From Polyangiales bacterium (GTDB lineage Bacteria; Myxococcota_A; Polyangia; Polyangiales; Ga0077539): a DNA stretch of 64,000 nucleotides. Under the pieces are notes generated by a model that did no database searches, was not told the origin of the DNA, and was given only the letters and a program-made list of their open reading frames with translations. A program made the translations under genes and the position numbers. Location of the stretch: NCBI GenBank assembly GCA_046351515.1, contig JAXLYJ010000005.1, forward strand, positions 50,892-114,891, in the 5' to 3' direction. This document shows, in pieces, positions 1,559 through 62,953 of the stretch (positions are counted from its first letter, which is position 1; each line of letters starts with the position of its first letter).

Positions 1559-2956
1559 TCAGCCTTTGTTTTTTCTCGCAGAAATGCGCGCGATGGCCTC
1601 GTGCGCCGCCGCCTCGACCCGCGCCTTCGCCGGCGCCCCCACGAGGTCGCGCCGCTCGACCGCGCGCTCGGGCTCGAGGACCGGAAAGATCCCTTCGTCG
1701 AACGCCGCGTGCTCTTCGCGGTACACGCTCAGCGGGAGGCTCGGCAGGTCCGTCTTCTGCTCGATCGCCCGCGCCACGAGCCGCCCTGCGACCGCGTGCG
1801 CCTCTCGAAACGCGACGCCCTTCTCGACGAGGTAGTCGGCGACCTCCGTCGCGTTGACGAAGCCCGCGTCGAGCGCCCGCCGCATGCGATCCGCGTTGAA
1901 CCGCATGGCGAGCACCACGCGCTCGAGCACCTCGAGGCACATCGAGACCTGCTTGACCGCGTCGAACACCGGAGGCTTGTCCTCTTGGAGATCGCGGTTG
2001 TACCCGAGCGGAAGCCCCTTGAGCGTGACGAGCAACGCCATCAGGTCGCCGACGACGCGGCCCGTCTTTCCGCGGACGACCTCCGCGACGTCGGGGTTCT
2101 TCTTCTGCGGCATCATCGACGAGCCGGTCGTGTGCGCGTCGGCCATCTCGACGAAGGCGAACTCTTGCGTGCTCCAGAGCACGAGCTCCTCTGCGAGCCT
2201 CGACAAGTGCGTCTGCGTGATCGCGAGCGCGGCGAGCAGCTCCGCGAGAAAATCTCGGTCCCCCGTCGCGTCGATCGAGTTGCGCATCGGGCGATCGAAG
2301 CCCAGCGACTTCGCGGTGCGCTCTCGGTCGAGCTTGAACGTCGTGCCCGCCACCGCGCCCGATCCCAACGGCGACTCGTTGAGCCGCTTGCGGCAATCGC
2401 TCAGCCGTCCGTGATCTCGGTCGAGCATCTCGACGTACGCGAGCAAGTGATGCGAGAGGCGCGAGGGCTGCGCGCGCTGCAAGTGCGTGTACGCAGGCAT
2501 GAGCACGTCGAGCTGCTCGGCCGCGCGCTGGGCGAGGGCGAGGGCCAGCGAGTCCACCAGCGCGGCGACGCGGTCGCACGCGTCGCGCGACCAAAGGCGC
2601 AGGTCCGTCGCGACCTGATCGTTGCGCGAGCGGCCGGTGTGCAGGCGAGCGCCCGCGGTTCCGATGCGCTCGGTGAGCGTGGCCTCGACGTTCATGTGGA
2701 CGTCTTCGCGCGCCGGATCGAAGTGAAACGCGCCCTTGCCGAGCTCGTCCTTGATCGCTCCGAGCCCCGCCGTGATCGCGTCGCGCTCTTGCTCGGTGAG
2801 CACGCCGATCGCGCAGAGCATCTCGGCGTGCGCGATCGAACCGCGGACGTCGACCTCGCCGAGGTGCTTGTCGACCTCGACGCTGACGAGAAAATTCGAC
2901 GCGACCTCGTCGAGGTCTTCCGTGAACCTGCCGCCCCAAGCCTTGTGCGTGGACAT
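1559..2956 (-). CDS. argH: argininosuccinate lyase
   Basis: 465-aa ORF with full-length similarity to the ArgH/fumarase-II lyase family. Contains the signature region GSSMMPQKKNPD and the N-terminus MSTHKAWGGRF, typical of ArgH. Confidence 0.95.
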   Translation of the reverse strand: MSTHKAWGGRFTEDLDEVASNFLVSVEVDKHLGEVDVRGSIAHAEMLCAIGVLTEQERDAITAGLGAIKDELGKGAFHFDPAREDVHMNVEATLTERIGTAGARLHTGRSRNDQVATDLRLWSRDACDRVAALVDSLALALAQRAAEQLDVLMPAYTHLQRAQPSRLSHHLLAYVEMLDRDHGRLSDCRKRLNESPLGSGAVAGTTFKLDRERTAKSLGFDRPMRNSIDATGDRDFLAELLAALAITQTHLSRLAEELVLWSTQEFAFVEMADAHTTGSSMMPQKKNPDVAEVVRGKTGRVVGDLMALLVTLKGLPLGYNRDLQEDKPPVFDAVKQVSMCLEVLERVVLAMRFNADRMRRALDAGFVNATEVADYLVEKGVAFREAHAVAGRLVARAIEQKTDLPSLPLSVYREEHAAFDEGIFPVLEPERAVERRDLVGAPAKARVEAAAHEAIARISARKNKG

Positions 2957-2989
2957 GTGATCTTCCGTGCTTGTTGAATGTGTGTGTTG

Positions 2990-5027
2990 TTATTCGAGTC
3001 GCGCTTCGAGGTCGTACGCGCCCGTGTTGTTGCGATCGAAGCCGTCGACGATGATCGAGTACGCGCCCGGCTCGACGTCGAGCTGCGCGCGCGCGCGATG
3101 TCCTGCGCGTTTTCGAGCGCGCACGCCAGCTCGGTGCCTTGCCGCTCGCACACGCGCCGAACGCTCAGCACCGCGTCGAAGCTCCGCCCGCGAAGCTCGA
3201 CCACGAGCCGCCCTCGTCGATTGACGTTCACCGTGTGCACGCGCTCGCCGCTGCGCGCGCCGTGGCCGCACGAGGCCTGCAGTCGATCGATCCGCCCCAC
3301 GGTCGTCCCGCTCGTGCGAACCGCGAGGGGCAACGGCAGCGCCTCGCGGCACGCTGACTCCACGGGCTCGGCGTCGAGCGCCTCGAGGGTGAACGCGAAC
3401 TGCCCAAAATCATTGGGCGTCGCGCCGTCGACCACGAGAAAGTGCGTCCCCGCGGGCAGCAGCGCGTCGACCATCGTCCCGCGCGCGCACGCAAACTCGC
3501 CCACCGGCGCCGAGCCCGTCGCCGCGCAGCCGCGCACGAATCCGAGGCCCACCGTCGCGTCCGAGTTCACGATGCCTTCGGCCGCGAGCGTCGCGCGCAC
3601 GAGCGCCCTGCGCGGGAGCGTGAAGCGAAACATCTGATCGGGGCCGTTGCCCCCGCACGTAAGCGAGATGTCGTCGCGCGCGGCGAAGGTGTCTCCCTCG
3701 GTCTTCTGCGACAGGTTGATGTGCGGCGCGTCCGCGCAGCGATCGCCGCTCACGCCCGAACCCTCCGCCGGAGCGCTCTCGACCGCGAGCGTAAACGCCC
3801 CGTGCGCGTCGGCGCTGTAGCCATCGACGGTGACCGCGTAGCGACCGGCTTGCAGCGTCCGCGCGACGCGCGCGTGAAAGCGATCGTCGGCGTCGTCGTT
3901 GCACACGACCTCGGACTCGGGGTCCGCGCACGCCGAGCGAATGTACACGCCGGTGTCCCACCGCCCCTCGCTCTCGACGGTGACCCGCACGCGCGACGGC
4001 TGCGCGAGCGCGAGCGCGTACGTCACGTCCGGCGCAGGAAACCGGCTCGACGCGCAAGACCCGTGCAGCACGTCCGCGAGGCCCTCGGTCGTCCCGTGCA
4101 TCACCACGCCAGGCTCGATCGATCGCGCGCGCGCGCACACGTCCGCGGCCTCGGGCGACTCGGCCTCGTTGGTGGTGAGCGTGTACGCCCCGCGCGATCC
4201 GTCTCCGACCGCCTCGACGAACACGTAGTAGCGCCCTGGATCGAGCGTCGTGTCGATGCGCGCAGGGCCTCCGTCGCGCGGAACCGAGCACTCGAGCGTC
4301 GGTCCGTCGAAGGTGTTCGCGCCCGCGCCTCCGCCCGCGCACGAGCGGCGAACATAGAGCGCGCGCTGTCCTTCGCCCGTCGCCACGAGCTGCACGCGCT
4401 GCCGACGCTCGACCTCGATCACGTGAACGACGTCGGGGTTGCGCCCCGCGGCGCAGGTCGCTCCCGCGTTGTCCTGCGCGCTCACGAGCGAGCCCGTCAG
4501 CGCGTCCGCCGAGCTCGAGCGGCAGCGGATTGACGCACGTCCCGCGGGTCGAGCTCTCACCCGAGCGCTCGTCGTCGCGGTCCCACAGCGCGTACGCGTA
4601 CGCGCCTTGGCCGTCGCGCGCCGAGACCGCGAAGCGAAACGTCCCCGAGCCCGCCGCGCAATAGCCCACGCTCGCAGCGCGCGCTGGTCAAGCTCTGCAC
4701 CGCGCGCACGCCGTCCGGCGTGTAGAGCGCCGCTTCGAGGTTCACGCCGTCCGAGGCGCCGAGCGCGACGATGCGGTAGCAGTGCCCCGCGCGCAGCCGA
4801 GCGAGGTGCGAGCGCGTCTGGCCTCGACGGATCGTCGCGTCTTCCGTGGCGCCGACCGGCGCGTATCCGAGCGAGTCCATCGTCGCCCGGTGCCCAGGCA
4901 GGACGGTGCTCGTCTTGGGCGCGGAGGGCGCGCACGCCGGATGCGCCCAAGCCAACGCACACACAATCAACAGCGACGTACGTACGGTGCGCGCAGCGGC
5001 CAGCGCGCTCGTCCACGGAGGCGCCAT
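2990..5027 (-). CDS. secreted protein with about five tandem PPC-like (pre-peptidase C-terminal) beta-sandwich domains; frame broken at ~4650 and ~3350
   Basis: Signal peptide MAPPWTSALAAARTVRTSLLIVCALAWAHPACA in ORF 4557..5027. Repeated ~100-aa units ending GRYYVFVEAVG..GAYTL, GRYAVTVDGYS..GAFTL, GTHFLVVDGAT..FAFTL and GAYSIIVDGFD..GAYDLEARLE span three frames (4557..5027, 2692..5016, 2990..3352). The flanks of the 774-aa ORF are Arg-rich junk. Confidence 0.55.
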
Positions 5028-5031
5028 GGGA

Positions 5032-6703
5032 TCAGTAGTACTGCTTGCGCTTGGCGCTCGAGAGGATGCCCATCATCTCGCGGTACTTCGCGATGGTCCT
5101 GCGCGCGATGATGATCTTCGACTGCTCTTCGAGCTTCTTGGCGATCGCCTCGTCCGAGAGCGGGTTCTTTGGGTCTTCTTCCGCGATGATCTTCTTGATC
5201 GCCTGCTTGACCGACTCGCTCGCGATGTCCTCGTCGGCCATGCGTCGGATCGAGCTGTTGAAGAAGTATTTGAGCTCGAAGATCCCGCGCGGCGTGTGGA
5301 CGTACTTGTTCGTCGTGACGCGCGAGATCGTGCTCTCGTGCATCCCGACGGTCTCGGCCACGTCGCGAAGGATCATGGGCTTGAGGTACTCGACGCCCTT
5401 CTCGAAGAACTCGTGCTGCTTCTCGACGATGCACTGCGTGACCTTGACGATCGTGCGCTGCCGCTGGTCGAGCGAGCGGACAAACCACCGCGCCGAGGCG
5501 AGCTTGTTCTGCACGAACTCCTTGGCCTTCGGGTCCTTCATCAACGCCTGCGCCTGCTCGACGTTGATCTTGAGCTTCGGCAGCCCGTCGTCGTTCGTCG
5601 TGACGGCGTACCCGTCCGAGGTCTTCACGACGTACACGTCGGGCGAGACGTACGGAGGATCTTCAGTGCTGAAGTTGCGACCCGGTCGCGGCTCGAGCGT
5701 GCCGATCAGCTTCGAGGCGTCGTACACGTCGTTGAGGTCGCACTTGAGGTCTTTCGCGATCGCCTGAAAATTGCGGCGCTCGATGTGCTGCAGGTGCTTG
5801 TCGATCACCTGCCAGACGATGGTCTCTTCGTCGTAGCCGAACGCCTCGGCTTGCACGAGCAAGCACTCGCGCAGGTCGCGTGAGGCGACGCCGACAGGGT
5901 CGAGCGACTGGATCAACCGCAGGACTTCTTCGGCGTCTTCGGGGTGCAGCCCGCTTCGCGCGCGAGGTCTTCGAGCGTGATCGTCTGCGCGCGCGGGACT
6001 TCTCGTTGGCGGCGATGTCCGCGGCCGAGAGGTTGGTGACCGGCTCTTCGGCCTTCTTCTTCTTCTTTTTGCCGTGCTCTTCGTCGTCGTCCGACTCGCT
6101 CGGCTCGTCCCACTGCGAGTGGCTCTCTTCGCGGTCGGCCTTCTTCTTCTTCTCGCGCTCCTTCTCGGGAGCGTCGCCGCGAAGCCGCAAGTAGCCGTTG
6201 TCGTCGAGGTTGTGCACGACGAGCATCGCGAAGGTCATCTCTTCGTTCGTGAGGTTCGAGAGACGAAGCTGGTCCATCAAGTGATCGGAGAGCGACGAGC
6301 GCGAGCTCAGCGTCGCTTCGAGCGAGGGCAGCTCTTCGCTCGACAAGCGGCCGCCGCCCGAGGGGACCGGCGCTTGATTGGCGTACGACTCGAGAAAGCG
6401 CTCCCAATACTCTTCTTGCTTGCTCTCGCTCGCCGCGCGCTTCTCTTCGTGGTTGTGCACCGCCTGCTCGCGGCGCTCTTCGAGCGCGGCGATGTCGTCG
6501 ATCGTCGGGGTCGAGTCGGCGTCCTTCGCGCGCGCCTCGCCCTCGGCAGCCTCGTCGAGAATCGGGTTCTCCGTGAGCTCTTCACGGATCTGATCGATCA
6601 GCTCGAGCCGAGACAGCTGGAGCAGTTTGATCGCCTGCTGCAGCTGCGGCGTCATCACGAGCTGCTGCGACATGTTCAGGCCGAGGCCGAGCTTCCCTTC
6701 CAT
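5032..6703 (-). CDS. rpoN: RNA polymerase sigma-54 factor
   Basis: N-terminal region I MEGKLGLGLNMSQQLVMTPQLQQAIKLLQLSRLEL, an acidic region II, then LIQSLDPVGVASRDLRECLLVQ and the C-terminal RpoN box ARRTIAKYREMMGI. Two single-base deletions near 5945 and 5990 split the gene between ORFs 5032..5916, 5913..6407 and 5663..7504. Confidence 0.9.
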
Positions 6704-6794
6704 CGCTGCACCCAATGATCGACGTGGCGTTTGACCGCGAAAAACTCCCCTGGCGACAACACATCGTTTGGGGACGACCGAAACATAAACGCTC

Positions 6795-6809
6795 GGCACC
6801 CTCCTTGCA
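6795..6809 (+). promoter_or_regulatory. sigma-54 type -24/-12 promoter motif (GGCAC-N5-TTGCA), reading antisense into the 3' end of the dynamin-like gene
   Basis: cGGCACcctccTTGCAcg has the consensus GG and GC at exactly the canonical 12-nt spacing. It lies in the rpoN upstream intergenic region on the strand opposite both flanking genes. Confidence 0.35.
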
Positions 6810-6840
6810 CGATGATTGTGCACGCCCCCGACGAATGCGT

Positions 6841-9492
6841 TCAGCGCGCGAACGTGACCGGCGGCGCGACGTAATCGCTGAGCGACTCGCGCGCGACGGC
6901 GATCGCCGATCGAACGAGGTCGTCTGCTCCTTCGTCGCGACGCTCGACGCGCAGCACCGCTTGCTCGAGCGCTGCGAACGGGTCGCTGGCGATCACGACG
7001 AACGGCGGGCTCCCGCTCGCCGCGTCGCGCGCACCTTCGACCGCGGCGTGATCGATGGATTGAACGACCAGCGCCGTCACGAGCGCGGCGCTCTCTTCGC
7101 GCACGACGCCGGACTCGACCGCGAGCCGCTCGAGCTCGACGAGCCCGCCGCGCAGCTCGCCGAGCACCCGCTGACGAACACGCCAGGTGACCTCCGCCGC
7201 CGCGTCCGTCGCGAGCACGTTCGCGTCCGCCGCCCGCGCGCGATCGCGGCGCTCGAGCCCGCGCAGCTGCTCGATGAGCGTCCCGGCCACCTCGCGGCGC
7301 ACCGCAGAGAGAACGCCCGGAAGCTGCTCTCGCAACACGGCGATCATCGCGAGCAGCGCGTCGCGGCGCTCGTCGGTGCGTCGCGCGCGCTCGGCGGACT
7401 CGTCGAGCGCGCGCTCGGCCTCGGCGAGCACTTGCGCCGTCCGCCTCGCCACGCGCAGCTGCTTCCACGCGGCGCGCTGCGCGACGAGGTGCTCGTCGAT
7501 CCACGCGAGCAGCGGCGCGAAGCCCGAGGTCACGAGCTTGAGCTTCGCCGCTTGTTTTTCAGCGTCCGATCGCGTCGGATCCTCGATCACGAGCTGCGCG
7601 GCGAGCGCTTCTTTCGCGCTCACCGAGGTCACGAGCGGCGCGAGGTCTTTGAACGCCTCGCGCACGACGTTGGCCAGCGGCGTGAGCTCGTTGGCCTTCA
7701 CGAAGTCGATCTTGTTGAGCACGCCGAGCACGGGAAGCCCGCCGTCGGCAGCCTCTTGAAGAGGGCCGGTCTCGCTCATTTTTCCGGCCTGGCGCGCGTC
7801 GAAGAGCCACAGCGCGATGTCGGCCATCGCGAACGCCGAGCGCACCGCTTTCTCGTGCGCCGCGTCGCCGGCGTTGAAGCCCGGCGTGTCGATCAGCTCG
7901 ACGCGCGCAAGCCTCGGCGCGGGCCAGTTGACCTCGACGTAGTCCACTCCGGCTCCGCTCTCGCGGGCTCGCTCCACGACCGATGGCGCCGCGTCGATCG
8001 TGCACACGACGGACGACCCTCGGCCGTCGACAACTCGCGCCGAGCGCTCTCCGTGCCGCAGCCAGTGAACGTGCGCCGTCGTCGGAAGCACGCCCATCGG
8101 CGAGACCGTCGCGCCCACCAGGGCGTTGAGAAACGTGGATTTTCCCGCGCTGAACTCGCCGAGCAGCGCCACCCGCAGCGGCTCGTCGAGCTCTCGCCTC
8201 CGCACGCGCAGCTCGCGCTCGACCGCCGTGAGCGCCGCGCTGTTGCGCGCGAGCAGCGCGAGGTCATCGAGCAGGTCCGCCAGCTTGTGATCCCATCGCG
8301 CTCGAAGCAGCGCGCGGTATCGCTGCGCGGCGATCGAGGCCGTTCGCTCATCGGAGAACGCTGGCCCGAGCGCGCTCTGCGCGGCGATCGGGTCGAGGTC
8401 GGTCCGCTCGGGCTTCGCTTCAGCGAGCGCCTTCACCGCAGCAGAACCCAGGCGATGGGGCGCTTCATTGGCCCACCGCTCGGCCACCGCGGGCGCCGCC
8501 GCGAGCGTCGTCTCGATCGCCAGCGGCCAGAGCGCGTCGGGGATGCCCGCGCCGTTCACCGCCTCGAGCGCGCTCACGGCCGAGCGGTCTCCAGCGCCGA
8601 GCGCCACGAGCGCGCGGGTGAGCTCGGCGAGCGCTCCTTGCGCCTCGGCCACGAAGCGCTCGAGCGCAGTCGAGTCCTTCGCGCGATACAGCGCGAGCGT
8701 GAGCGCGGCGATCGCGTCGTGCTCTCCGACGAGCCACGCGCGGCGCAAGAGCTTGATCGCGAGCGGGAGGTTGTTGAGCGCGAGGGCGACCTCGCCTGCC
8801 TCGCGGTTGAGCGCGCCGTTGGCCGCGTCGAGCGTCGCGACCGCGCGCTCGATCGCCCGCGTGCACTGCCCCTGATCGCCGCGCGCGAGCGCGTCTCGCG
8901 CGAGCAAGAGCCACGCTGCGCCGAGCTTCGGATCGACCACCGTGGCGCTTCGCGCGAGCTGCAGCGCGCCTGCCGATCCTCCCTTCGCCAGCAGCGATCG
9001 AGCGGCGTTGAGCAGGTGCTTCGCGGTGCTCGGGTCGCGGTCGCTCGTGCGTGCGCGCGCTTGCGTGGCGAGCTCGATCGCGCGTCGCTCGTCGCCGGTC
9101 GCCGCGGCGAACTCGCACATGCGCGCGAGCGAGAGCGGAGGCAGCACGCGCTCGCGCGAGACGTCCGCGAGCGTCGAGAGCGCCGCAGCGGCGTCGCCGC
9201 GCGCGAAGAGGGCGTCGGCCTTGAGCTGCGCAGCGCGGAGAAAGAGCGGAGCTGCCGCGAGGGCGTTCTCTGCGGCGCGCAGCGCCCCGTCGGGGTCTCC
9301 TGCGGCGAGCAGCGCTTCGCCGCGCTTGGCGAGGTTGGTCACCTCGTCCGACGGGGGAATGATCGAATCGAGAAAGCGCTCGACGCGTTCGAAGAGAGCC
9401 ACGGGCTTCGCGGGCGGATCCGGCACGGGCGCAGCGTACCCCTCCGTCGAACAACATTGAACCGTGCTACACACGCCGGCCGCATCGAGCAT
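6841..9492 (-). CDS. TPR-repeat protein fused to a bacterial dynamin-like GTPase domain
   Basis: The N-terminal ~430 aa are Ala/Leu-rich TPR-like helical repeats. The C-terminal half has GTPase motifs G1 GEFSAGKST, G3 DTPG and G4 NKID, with dynamin-family organisation. The true start is uncertain (ORF 6841..9558; murJ starts divergently at 9491). Confidence 0.65.
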   Translation of the reverse strand: MLDAAGVCSTVQCCSTEGYAAPVPDPPAKPVALFERVERFLDSIIPPSDEVTNLAKRGEALLAAGDPDGALRAAENALAAAPLFLRAAQLKADALFARGDAAAALSTLADVSRERVLPPLSLARMCEFAAATGDERRAIELATQARARTSDRDPSTAKHLLNAARSLLAKGGSAGALQLARSATVVDPKLGAAWLLLARDALARGDQGQCTRAIERAVATLDAANGALNREAGEVALALNNLPLAIKLLRRAWLVGEHDAIAALTLALYRAKDSTALERFVAEAQGALAELTRALVALGAGDRSAVSALEAVNGAGIPDALWPLAIETTLAAAPAVAERWANEAPHRLGSAAVKALAEAKPERTDLDPIAAQSALGPAFSDERTASIAAQRYRALLRARWDHKLADLLDDLALLARNSAALTAVERELRVRRRELDEPLRVALLGEFSAGKSTFLNALVGATVSPMGVLPTTAHVHWLRHGERSARVVDGRGSSVVCTIDAAPSVVERARESGAGVDYVEVNWPAPRLARVELIDTPGFNAGDAAHEKAVRSAFAMADIALWLFDARQAGKMSETGPLQEAADGGLPVLGVLNKIDFVKANELTPLANVVREAFKDLAPLVTSVSAKEALAAQLVIEDPTRSDAEKQAAKLKLVTSGFAPLLAWIDEHLVAQRAAWKQLRVARRTAQVLAEAERALDESAERARRTDERRDALLAMIAVLREQLPGVLSAVRREVAGTLIEQLRGLERRDRARAADANVLATDAAAEVTWRVRQRVLGELRGGLVELERLAVESGVVREESAALVTALVVQSIDHAAVEGARDAASGSPPFVVIASDPFAALEQAVLRVERRDEGADDLVRSAIAVARESLSDYVAPPVTFAR

Positions 9493-11120
9493 GGCTGAGC
9501 CCGAAACCCCCGCGACCGAAAAGCCCCAGAGCTCCGTCGCGAAGAACGCCGCGATCACCTTCGCCGACGCTCGCGTCGCGCGTGCTCGGGATGTTGCGCG
9601 AGACGCTCATCGCCGCGACGTTTCCCACGGCGATCACCGACGTGTTCTTCGTCGCGTGGCGCGTGCCGAACGCGCTTCGGGCGTTGCTCGCCGAGGGCGC
9701 CGCGAGCGCCGCGCTGGGGCCAGCGTTTTCACACGCGCTCGAGCCCGAGAAGGGGCAGAGCGAGAAGAACATCCCTCGCTTGCGCGAGGTGCTCTCGCGC
9801 GTCGGCGGCGCGGCGTTCGTGGCGCTCGCGCTCGCGACGGCGCTCGGCGTGATCTTCGCACGGCCGATCTTTCAGCTCGTCTCGCACGGGTTCAACGGCG
9901 ACACGGCGCGCTTCGAGCTCGGCGTGACGTTGCTGCGCGTGCTGTTTCCGTTCTTGTTCTTGATGGGGTGGTTCAGCCTCGGACGCACGGCGCTCGAGCG
10001 ACTGGGAGACTTCACGACGGGGTCGAAGGCGAGCGTGTTGCAGAACGTCGCCTTCGTGCTCGCGCCGTTCTTGCTCGTGCCGATCGCGCCGTACGTGGGC
10101 GTGAGCCCGATCGTGATGATGGCGGTCGCGGCGCTCATCGGCGGGCTCTTGCAGGTGTTGTATTTGCGCCCGGCGCTGCGGCGACGGGGAGTGCTCGTTC
10201 GCCCGACGTTGGCCAACGATCCCGCGCTCTCGGACGTGTCCAAGACCTTCGTCACGATGCTCTACGGGCAGCTCGTCTATCAGGCGACGGTGATGCTCTC
10301 GGCGCGGCTGCTCGCCACGCTCGAGCCCGGCAGCGCCTCGTGGAACAGCTATGCCCAGCGCCTCGCGGACATCCCTCAAGGGCTCTTCACGGTCTCGCTC
10401 GCCGGCGCCGCGGCGGCCGAAATGGAGAAGGCCGCGGTCAAGCTCGACCGCGACGCCGTCGCGCGAACGTACGAGCGAACGCTCTCGCTGAGCGCCTTCG
10501 TCGCGATCCCGGCGTGCGTGCTGCTCGCGGTGTACGCGGACGCGATCGTGCCGCTCGTCTTTGGCTACGGGCGCTTCGCGCGCGGAGAAAACGCGGCGCG
10601 CAACATGTACGAGGTCGCCCGCTCGCTGCACTGGCAGGCGATCGGCGTCGGGCTGTTCGCGTTCGTGCACCCGACCAATCGAGTGTTCTCGGCGTTCAAG
10701 CGCCGCAAGCCGATCCTGACCGCCTCGACGATCGCGCTCGTGTCCTACGCGTTCGCGGGTGTGTGGCTCGCGCGCGTCCGCGGCCACGTGGGCGTCGCGA
10801 TGGCGGGAGCGATCTCGGCCGCCGTGCAGCTCGTGGTGCTGTTGTGGCTCGTTCGCAAAGAGATCCCGTTTCGGCCCGCGAACGTCGGCGAGTCGCTCGC
10901 GAAGGTGCTCGGCGCCACCGGCGTGACCGCGCTCGCCGCGGTCGCGGCCGTTCGCTGGCTGCCGATCGCGACGAACACGATTCTGTCCAAAGCGCTCGCC
11001 GTGATCGTGGGCGGTGCGCTGCTCGTGGTGTATGCCTTGGCCGCCTGGTGGCTGCGATGCGAAGAGGCGACCGAGATCGTGCGAAGGCTCCGACGGCGAA
11101 GACGCCCGCCGGAGCCGTGA
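9491..11120 (+). CDS. murJ: lipid II flippase MurJ (MviN)
   Basis: Full-length similarity to the MurJ/MOP superfamily (RVPNALRALLAEGA..., 12-14 TM helices, ~520 aa). The N-terminus MAEPETP...AKNAAITF is in ORF 9464 and switches to ORF 9582 at ~9575 after a +/-1 indel. Confidence 0.85.
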
Positions 11121-61198: not shown

Positions 61199-61332
61199 GG
61201 TTTTGTAGAGTGAGGGGACGGTGTTCAAAAGTTCATTTGTTGGTCTCAACGCGACTCAACGGCCCCTGCCACTGAGCCAAACTGAGACCAACAAATGAAC
61301 TTTTGAACACCGTCCCCTAGCTCTACAAAACC
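61199..61332. promoter_or_regulatory. 134-bp AT-rich element: two ~50-bp near-perfect inverted repeats (48/50) around a 34-bp spacer, in the rtcR / ABC-rtcB divergent intergenic region
   Basis: Left arm 61199-61248 ggttttgtagagtgaggggacggtgttcaaaagttcatttgttggtctca. Right arm 61283-61332 is its reverse complement except tga/cta. Each arm holds GTTCA-N3-GTTCA. The spacer carries TGGCAG-N5-GTTGA on the minus strand. GC ~42% against ~70% for the window. Confidence 0.6.
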
Positions 61333-61378
61333 CCCTCGGAACGCCGTCGCTCGTTGCGATACGCTGCCGCTCGCCGCG

Positions 61379-62953
61379 ATGGCCGAGCCCCGCGAGAGAG
61401 TGCTGATCAGCGTCGTCGGGCAGCGCTTCGACGCCCCCAAGCAATGGAGGCCCACGCTCGTCTGCACGATGCACCCCGAGGTCGTCGCGTTCGATCGCGT
61501 GGTGCTCATCGAGCAGCCCGGCGCCGAGGTCGTGACCGAGATGCTCATCCGAGACATCGAGCGCGCGAACAAGGGGCGCTCGATCGCGTGCGAGCGCGTC
61601 GCGATCGACCTGAAGAATCCCTGGTCGTTCGAGGAGGTCTACGCGAAGTTCTACGCGTTCGCTCGGGCGCGATCGTGGCGCGAGCGCGACGAGCACTACG
61701 TGCACATGACGACCGGGACGCACGTGATGCAGATCGTCTGGTACCTGCTCGTGAGCGAGCGCTTCGTCCCTGCGAAGCTCGTGCAGAGCGCGCCGCCGAA
61801 GGGACGGGACCGCGCGGATCTCGGCGCCCTCGACGTGGTGGACCTGGATCTGTCCCGCTATCCCTCGATCGCGCGGCAGCGACACGCGCAGCAGCTCGAG
61901 GGCGAGTCGCTGCTGAAAATGGGGATCGAGACGCGGTCGCCTGCGTACAACGCGGTGATCGAGCGGCTGCAGAGGGCGGCGTTGGGACCGGCCGTTCCGC
62001 TCTTGTTGTGGGGCGAGACCGGCGTGGGAAAGAGCGCCCTCGCACGCCGCGTGTACGCCCTGCGAAAACAGTCGCGCTCGATCGCGGGGCCGCTCGTCGA
62101 AGTGAACTGCGCCACGCTGCGCGGGACGCTGCGAGAGAGCGCCCTCTTCGGCCACAAGAAGGGCGCGTTCACCGGCGCAGACCGCGATCGAAAGGGCTAC
62201 CTGCGCGCGGCCCACGGCGGAATGCTCTTTCTCGACGAAGTCGCCGAACTCGGCCTCGAAGAGCAAGCCATCTTGCTCACCGCCATCGAAGAGGGCCGCT
62301 TCTATCCCTTGGGCGCCGACGAGCCCGAGCGCTCGCAGTTCGCCCTCGTCTGCGGAACCAACCGCGATCTGCGCGCCGAAGTCCGCGCTGGACGCTTTCG
62401 CGACGACCTGCTCGCGCGCATCAGCACCTGGTCCTTTCGCTTGCCCGCCCTGCGCGAGCGCCGCGAAGACATCGAGAGCAACGTCCGCTTCGAGCTCGAT
62501 CGCTTCACCGAGACGTACCGCTCGAACGCGCGCTTCTCTCGCCCCGCGCTCGCGAAGTACCTCGCGTTCGCCAAGAGCGACGAGGCGCGTTGGCCCCATA
62601 ATTTCAGGGACCTCTCGCAGAGCGTGCTTCGAATGGCCTCGTCCGCGAGCGAAGGGCTCATCGACGTCGACGACGTGGCGCGCGAGATCGCAACGCTGCT
62701 CGAAGCGTGGGGACCGGTCGCCGAGCTCGCCGTTCCTGCGCGCTCGCCGGAGGACCGCTCGCGCGATCGCGTCGATCAAGTGCTGGTCGAGACCGTGATC
62801 GCGGCGCTGCGACGTTCGAAGTCCCTCGCGGCCGCCGGACGTCTGCTGTTCGACGGTGAAGCGAAGGCTGGCCGATCGGTCAACTACTCGGACCGCGCGC
62901 GAAAGCTCTGCCTGCGGCTCGCGATCGATCCCGCTGCATATTTAGCAAGATGA
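61379..62953 (+). CDS. rtcR: sigma-54-dependent transcriptional activator RtcR (CARF-type N-terminal domain, AAA+ sigma-54 interaction domain, C-terminal HTH)
   Basis: Collinear with E. coli RtcR along its whole length: KQWRPTL, HMTTGTHVMQIVW, LDLSRYPSIA, GETGVGKSALARR (Walker A), VEVNCATLRG, GAFTGA (GAFTGA loop), ARISTWSFRLPALRERREDIE, AKSLAAAGRLLF. Confidence 0.9.
   Translation: MAEPRERVLISVVGQRFDAPKQWRPTLVCTMHPEVVAFDRVVLIEQPGAEVVTEMLIRDIERANKGRSIACERVAIDLKNPWSFEEVYAKFYAFARARSWRERDEHYVHMTTGTHVMQIVWYLLVSERFVPAKLVQSAPPKGRDRADLGALDVVDLDLSRYPSIARQRHAQQLEGESLLKMGIETRSPAYNAVIERLQRAALGPAVPLLLWGETGVGKSALARRVYALRKQSRSIAGPLVEVNCATLRGTLRESALFGHKKGAFTGADRDRKGYLRAAHGGMLFLDEVAELGLEEQAILLTAIEEGRFYPLGADEPERSQFALVCGTNRDLRAEVRAGRFRDDLLARISTWSFRLPALRERREDIESNVRFELDRFTETYRSNARFSRPALAKYLAFAKSDEARWPHNFRDLSQSVLRMASSASEGLIDVDDVAREIATLLEAWGPVAELAVPARSPEDRSRDRVDQVLVETVIAALRRSKSLAAAGRLLFDGEAKAGRSVNYSDRARKLCLRLAIDPAAYLAR

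Follow-up and report, generated by a model that had tools for sequence, protein, structure and literature searches.

The window, by which we mean the whole 64,000-nt stretch of DNA that was analyzed, carries rpoN, the gene for sigma-54, on its minus strand with an ATG at 6703-6701, and directly upstream of it on the same strand a gene for a TPR/dynamin-like GTPase, the stop codon (TGA) of which lies at 6843-6841. The 137 nt that separate the two genes (6704-6840) contain a sigma-54-type motif reading the opposite way, in a gap of the length that the initial annotation had given for it. The features considered here, named by window coordinates and strand, are as follows.

5032-6703, minus strand: rpoN (sigma-54 gene), the gene that the conserved block would control; Pfam Sigma54_AID, CBD and DBD matches, spread over two reading frames.
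6841-9558, minus strand: TPR/dynamin-like GTPase gene, the upstream neighbor on the rpoN strand; Pfam Dynamin_N and TPR matches.
6794-6809, plus strand: predicted sigma-54-type recognition element, CGGCACCCTCCTTGCA; based on its sequence, on chance rates and on the presence of GG-N10-GC in 14 of the 16 distinct loci from relatives.
6782-6809, minus strand: putative composite promoter-operator block TGCAA-N7-GCC-N7-TAnnnT (TGCAAGGAGGGTGCCGAGCGTTTATGTT); unique in the window and made up of three conserved elements.
6805-6810, minus strand: putative -35 hexamer GTGCAA; TGC[A/C]A in 16 of 16 distinct clade loci, 17-18 nt from TAnnnT.
6782-6787, minus strand: putative -10 hexamer TATGTT; every one of the 16 clade loci has TAnnnT, at a constant spacing from TGCAA.

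Beyond the dynamin-like gene, MurJ is encoded divergently at 9582-11120 (Pfam), and directly downstream of rpoN lies a conserved gene (window 2692-5016, minus strand; 7670-9679 in locus L001) for a protein of ~670 aa without a Pfam match, the usual hpf, ptsN and rapZ being absent from this position. The order MurJ (divergent), dynamin-like GTPase, rpoN and uncharacterized ~670-aa protein is the same in the related loci L001-L003, which are those with enough flanking sequence. In another related locus (L006, positions 1-2880), the public annotation calls a 1,439-aa minus-strand 'MurJ' where Pfam places a dynamin-family GTPase on the plus strand, and this call probably runs on spuriously through an antisense frame. 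The rpoN gene is intact in L001-L003. Relative to the intact orthologues of L001 and L002, the window gene presents a +2 nt insertion at ~5995, where a CGCGCGCG run is longer by CG, and a -1 nt deletion at ~5950, and its frames are split between the activator-interacting and N-terminal core-binding part on one side and the remaining core-binding domain and DNA-binding domain on the other. The two frameshifts may have arisen in sequencing or assembly, or may mark a pseudogene; should they be real, the circuit discussed below would no longer function in this genome.

The motif GGCAC-N5-TTGCA was located by pattern search at 6795-6809 of the plus strand, exactly where the initial annotation had placed it, as the single copy in the window. 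Its -24 GG (6795-6796) and -12 GC (6807-6808) present the GG-N10-GC spacing that is canonical for sigma-54 promoters, and the element is oriented away from rpoN and toward the 3' end of the dynamin-like gene. The sigma-54 consensus reported for M. xanthus is TGGCACG-N4-TTGC[T/A] (PMC7910581). Of the match at every conserved position that had been claimed for the site, the exact spacing holds, but the identity of the bases does so at 10 of the 12 positions of the extended consensus TGGCACG-N4-TTGCW, with C instead of T at -26 and C instead of G at -20; the same number of positions is matched in L001, L002 and L007. The exact pattern, which was picked post hoc after the site had been seen, is expected 0.06 times per window and was observed once, the expectation being close to the earlier estimate of about 0.1, and TGGCAC-N5-TTGCW with up to one mismatch is expected 0.79 times per window. 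A heuristic score was also used, in which GG-N10-GC is obligatory and matches are then counted over the 8 other consensus positions. With this score, 4 sites in the window reach at least 6/8, the level of the site under study, and 18 reach at least 5/8, from which the chance of finding an equally good site in one given 137-nt gap is ~1%. Taken alone, the window sequence is suggestive but not decisive: it makes the motif mildly unusual and does not prove a function for it.

Related loci were gathered in order to assess conservation. A scan of species-representative genomes yielded 3 relatives, all of them MAGs labelled Myxococcales or Deltaproteobacteria; a protein search, the matches of which were mostly truncated RpoN fragments, yielded 4 further loci after contig look-up; and a scan of metagenomes, using an alignment of the core-binding segment of RpoN, yielded 76 rpoN loci, 15 of the same clade as the window and the rest distant. 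The clade set comprises 18 loci with 16 distinct sequences, the RpoN N-terminal identity of which to the window spans 51-91%. The window, L001 and L002 are close relatives, L008 is identical to L002, and in the more distant clade loci the intergenic DNA outside the block is unalignable. Of the 16 distinct clade loci, 14 have GG-N10-GC at the homologous position and likewise inverted, close relatives L001 and L002 included; these counts are partly dependent through kinship, the loci forming ~13 clusters at 75% identity, with GG-N10-GC retained in 11. The exact GGCAC-N5-TTGCA is found in the window, L001, L002 (and hence L008) and L007, and the other loci that retain the GG present GGCGC, GGCTC, GGCTT, GGCGT or GGTGT in place of GGCAC. 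The motif can be considered real because it is conserved in orthologous rpoN loci, the window alone being insufficient in this respect, and the comparison supports the prediction of 6794-6809 as a good sigma-54 recognition element that is tied specifically to rpoN.

The element is part of a larger conserved arrangement. Within 160 nt upstream of rpoN, [G/A]TGC[A/C]A-17/18 nt-TAnnnT occurs in exactly one copy in 18 of 18 clade loci, and the consensus of the interval on the rpoN strand is N4-GGnGCCGA-N5/6, which corresponds to GGC-N7-TTGCA on the other strand. The composite TGCAA-N7-GCC-N7-TAnnnT is found once in the 64-kb window, with 0.00 instances expected, and among the 83 loci it is confined to the region upstream of rpoN in 14 clade loci, on the same strand as the gene. 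The distance from the -10-like box to the rpoN ATG varies from 8 nt (L007) to 93 nt (L021) whereas the spacing inside the block is fixed, which ties the sigma-54-like element to the -10-like box and leaves it independent of coding sequence and leader. By Pfam, a dynamin-like gene lies upstream in L001, L006, L011 and L014, and the upstream gene has a C-terminal sequence similar to that of the dynamin-like protein in L002, L003, L005, L012, L015 and L021; in L013 it encodes an LptB-like ABC ATPase, and the element still lies beside rpoN. Since the upstream gene can differ in this way, and can stop inside the block, the element appears to travel with the rpoN promoter and not with an antisense target gene.

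In L013 (474-501), L014 (2142-2169) and L015 (2142-2169), the stop codon of the upstream gene lies within the block and forms part of the -10-like box. The upstream proteins of these loci, of the LptB-like type in L013 and of the dynamin-like type in the other two, all end in ...DA(K/T)SEP(R/K)(N/D)*, unrelated proteins having gained the same C-terminal tail because the same DNA element is read through. Two further readings of the interval were considered and rejected. A sigma-28-type reading, based on the resemblance of GCCGA to GCCGATAA, lacks the TAA part and a matching -35, and FliA is not known from myxobacteria; a uORF or Shine-Dalgarno reading of the GGAGG in the spacer was dismissed given that the spacer differs among loci.

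On the rpoN strand, the sigma-54 -12 element reads in reverse complement as GTGCAA (6805-6810), which in the window is followed after 17 nt by TATGTT, a spacing that amounts to 17-18 nt across clade loci. The -10-like box takes the forms TATGTT, TAGAGT, TATACT, TAGGAT, TACAGT, TAAGAT, TACACT and TAGATT in different loci. With regard to the sigma-70 consensus, the putative -35 matches TTGACA at 3/6 positions and the putative -10 matches its counterpart at 4/6, and a consensus scan of 6500-7100 that required at least 4/6 in each hexamer and 9/12 overall called no sigma-70 promoter. Based on its conservation, TGCAA-17 nt-TAnnnT would nevertheless be the active rpoN promoter, of a weak-looking sigma-70 type, with a putative transcription start near 6775 on the minus strand. 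In L007 (86-124), just 8 nt separate the end of the -10-like box TACAGT from the rpoN ATG; the mRNA of this locus would be leaderless or nearly so, which lends indirect support to TAnnnT as a true -10. Two clade loci have lost the sigma-54 signature, L003 through replacement of GG-N10-GC (GGTCC...TGGCA) and L022 through a change of GG to TG (TTGCACG-N4-TTGCA), and TGC[A/C]A and TAnnnT persist in both despite the lost GG. Because the -35/-10 pair persists in these GG-less loci, the pair seems to be under a constraint of its own, distinct from that on the -24 element. Insofar as this promoter assignment is correct, both the putative -35 (6805-6810) and the spacer (6788-6804) share sequence with the predicted sigma-54 element (6794-6809).

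Sigma-54 and the other sigma factors compete for core polymerase, and in the absence of an activator sigma-54 holoenzyme forms a stable, silent closed complex that covers approximately -35 to -5 of its own promoter. At the site described here, such coverage would extend over ~6787-6816. Sigma-54 holoenzyme bound to the inverted site would shut sigma-70 holoenzyme out of 6782-6810, and more sigma-54 would then mean less rpoN transcription, in a homeostatic negative feedback that operates through occupancy and would dispense with both an activator and an antisense product. We infer that sigma-54 holoenzyme binds 6794-6809 and that its binding represses rpoN. Negative autoregulation by occlusion, exerted from a predicted sigma-54 holoenzyme site that covers the -35 and spacer of the rpoN promoter, is accordingly the reading we adopt, with confidence that is about evenly balanced. 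The anatomy of the site points to binding over rpoN's own promoter rather than to productive antisense transcription, since the element stands in a fixed 17-18 nt register with TAnnnT and persists beside a different upstream gene. Of the sigma-54 feedback on rpoN that the initial annotation had envisaged, the feedback itself is probable, but the route through an antisense RNA or ORF is unsupported.

Published work offers several points of contact with negative autoregulation by occlusion. Sigma-54 is described as repressing transcription where its site overlaps another promoter, in the account of Zafar 2014 that is given in PMC4591121, and in Yersinia bound RpoN has been discussed as a steric obstacle (PMC7657599). 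The rpoN gene of R. leguminosarum is negatively autoregulated (PMC3538637). In Geobacter, overexpression of RpoN is harmful and its dosage critical, and rpoN is essential in both Geobacter and Myxococcus (PMC2725144); because overexpression is harmful and the gene essential, tight control of rpoN is plausible. A PSSM-based survey reported sigma-54 promoters before rpoN in several classes, the result for Myxococcota not being significant (PMC12316311). If correct, occlusion of the rpoN promoter would explain how sigma-54 dosage is kept in bounds in an uncultured myxobacterial lineage.

A first alternative is that the block combines the rpoN promoter with the operator of another protein, and that it resembles a sigma-54 site by coincidence: TGCAA would be kept as a -35, and GGnGCCGA would be the site of another regulator or a lineage-specific promoter feature. 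The persistence of TGCAA and TAnnnT where the GG is lost (L003, L022) would be in line with this explanation, as would the quality of the -24 half, which is off consensus in every locus. This conserved half reads C-GGC-n-C-C, so that C is found at -26 and at -20 throughout the clade; the A at -22 is also missing in most of the more distant loci, and the sites of these loci match 3-5 of the 8 auxiliary positions in the heuristic score. Chance alone gives a few similar scores in 64 kb of such GC-rich DNA. The pattern of conserved and variable columns, however, is the one expected of a sigma-54 site, with GG and GC set 10 nt apart around a free 4-nt spacer. In the information profile of the clade loci, TGCAA carries 1.6-2.6 bits per column, the four spacer bases 0.1-0.4 bits and GGnGCCGA 0.6-1.6 bits, followed by a stretch of low information and by the three fixed bases (T, A, T) of the -10-like box at 2.6 bits. 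Two conserved blocks around a free 4-nt spacer are predicted for a sigma-54 site and not for the spacer of a sigma-70 promoter. Moreover, GGnGCCGA lacks the dyad or repeat symmetry that a dimeric regulator needs, and unrelated lineages, whose promoter contexts are quite different, show an independent enrichment of sigma-54-like sites before rpoN, which would be difficult to account for if sigma-54 were not the ligand. On this evidence we regard the operator of another protein as a serious but somewhat unlikely alternative.

The enrichment was assessed by scanning 260 nt upstream of rpoN in 31 independent lineages outside the clade, clustered at 75% identity. Sites scoring at least 6/8 were present in 10 of the 31, against 0.46 expected from dinucleotide shuffles of the same regions (P ~8e-11) and 0.48 from the rest of the locus, and sites scoring at least 5/8 in 14, where shuffles predict 2.9. 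Among the 10, 6 share the orientation of rpoN and 4 have the opposite one. Examples among the non-clade loci (L023-L083) are L035 (2230-2250), L045, L064, L046, L031, L052 (620-640), L078 and L081. A group of low-GC loci carries an inverted site, TGGCA[T/C]AAAAATTGCA, ~60 nt upstream of a TGnTATAAT box, and in some members of this group the site and the upstream gene's terminator partly coincide. In the alphaproteobacteria-like loci L051, L052, L054 and L072, lptB lies upstream of rpoN and an inverted palindromic sigma-54-like site, AGGCATGCTTTTTGCA, is found 20-36 nt before the rpoN ATG; the palindrome, GCATGCAAAAAGCATGC, reads as sigma-54-like on both strands and is a candidate operator of rhizobial negative rpoN autoregulation. 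Sites at which sigma-54 would bind its own gene thus appear to be widespread, their orientation being seemingly immaterial, and this indifference to orientation fits a mechanism based on occupancy, at least for the inverted sites. That about one third of the sampled unrelated lineages present such a site, in what looks like a cross-phylum tendency, suggests that self-binding is a general design rule, and this wider cross-lineage pattern may be more useful than the single case from which it was reached.

A second alternative takes the site as an active, activator-dependent sigma-54 promoter with a plus-strand start near 6820-6822, acting through an antisense RNA or through transcriptional interference, possibly alongside occlusion. 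The site is a good -24/-12 element with 10 of 12 consensus positions and a conserved orientation, and the upstream gene and rpoN have no terminator between them, so that read-through transcription is available for interference. Many silent, intragenic or antisense sigma-54 sites have been detected by ChIP-seq, with E. coli (PMC4591121) and Yersinia (PMC7657599) showing frequent antisense and intragenic sites, and Myxococcus has many intragenic sigma-54 promoters (PMC7910581). An activator gene is also present in the window, in the form of a GAFTGA-containing ORF at 61307-62953 (plus strand) that probably encodes a sigma-54 enhancer-binding protein; it lies ~55 kb from the site, and no link between this ORF and the rpoN site was found.

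Against an active promoter stands the lack of a recognizable product. In the orientation of the site, no gene or functional RNA was found downstream, where there is just the antisense strand of the dynamin-like gene, and this target of any antisense transcript is replaced by another gene in L013. The small ORF that the initial annotation had noted at 6813-6875 with 21 codons does exist, but its true coordinates are 6812-6874, with 20 codons and a stop; it was rejected as a product, being unconserved and reading ATG TGA in both L001 and L002. A scan of 6500-7100 revealed no terminator-like site on either strand, and a search of 6300-7300 returned no Rfam match. Over its first 141 nt, the postulated antisense RNA forms a less stable fold than shuffled sequence (z = +1.97), and a cis-regulatory RNA element was rejected, RNAalifold predicting 0 pairs on 14 orthologous blocks. 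The antisense or 3'-overlapping RNA and the tiny ORF that had been put forward thus find no backing in conservation, terminator, RNA family or stable fold. As regards an activator, the leader of rpoN showed no conserved block resembling an activator site in the clade comparison and is missing altogether in L007; within the highly conserved 5' part of the rpoN coding sequence, a repeat search returned repeats that stem from CAG/CTG codons, and coding constraint there would mask any site. Furthermore, an active promoter does not require the fixed register with the -10 box. We consider this alternative quite unlikely. Its activator-gated form, in which the inverted promoter would fire away from rpoN and shut off both the rpoN promoter and read-through by interference or collision, is very doubtful; if it were true, an external signal would set the level of an essential sigma factor through the machinery of its own regulon, and not by simple occupancy. 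Last, a chance match without function, inherited through recent common ancestry, might be entertained given the 0.79 consensus instances with up to one mismatch expected per window and the close relationship of the window, L001 and L002, but it is highly improbable, as the element survives down to 51% RpoN identity, where flanking DNA is unalignable and neighboring columns are randomized, and the composite is unique to rpoN upstream regions.

Set against known systems, the predicted self-occlusion of the rpoN promoter shares features with several of them. Canonical activator-dependent promoters such as glnAp2 and nifH have the same GG/GC spacing, and 10 of 12 consensus positions are matched here; they differ from the present site in that the latter has no gene to transcribe and no detectable activator site, and is opposed to the linked rpoN. 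The rpoN2 gene of B. japonicum and rpoN1 of R. etli are reportedly autoregulated negatively. In the rhizobia with such autoregulation, R. leguminosarum included, the expression of rpoN rises in the absence of sigma-54, and the alphaproteobacteria-like loci described above carry an inverted site before rpoN; unlike the site in the window, theirs adjoins the start codon, downstream of lptB, and is not placed on any TGCAA-17 nt-TAnnnT block. Autoregulation of rpoN in P. putida was, reportedly, described by Kohler et al. in 1994. Binding of sigma-54 before its own gene regulates its own expression in Pseudomonas, and the logic would be the same here, where binding is predicted; the organism, the gene neighborhood and the promoter are different, and in the present case the site is inverted on the -35 and spacer. 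In P. aeruginosa, an RpoN ChIP-seq peak lies upstream of rpoN (PMC8855297). In the occlusion described for E. coli (Zafar et al. 2014, as cited in PMC4591121), a silent closed complex stands against sigma-70 holoenzyme on overlapping DNA, and neither orientation nor downstream gene matters, as proposed here; the cases cited there concern genes other than rpoN and hence form no feedback loop. On the evidence of the loci compared, the site most likely allows sigma-54 holoenzyme to restrain its own gene; feedback of this kind is known from Pseudomonas and rhizobia, and the present case adds a cleanly conserved composite architecture.
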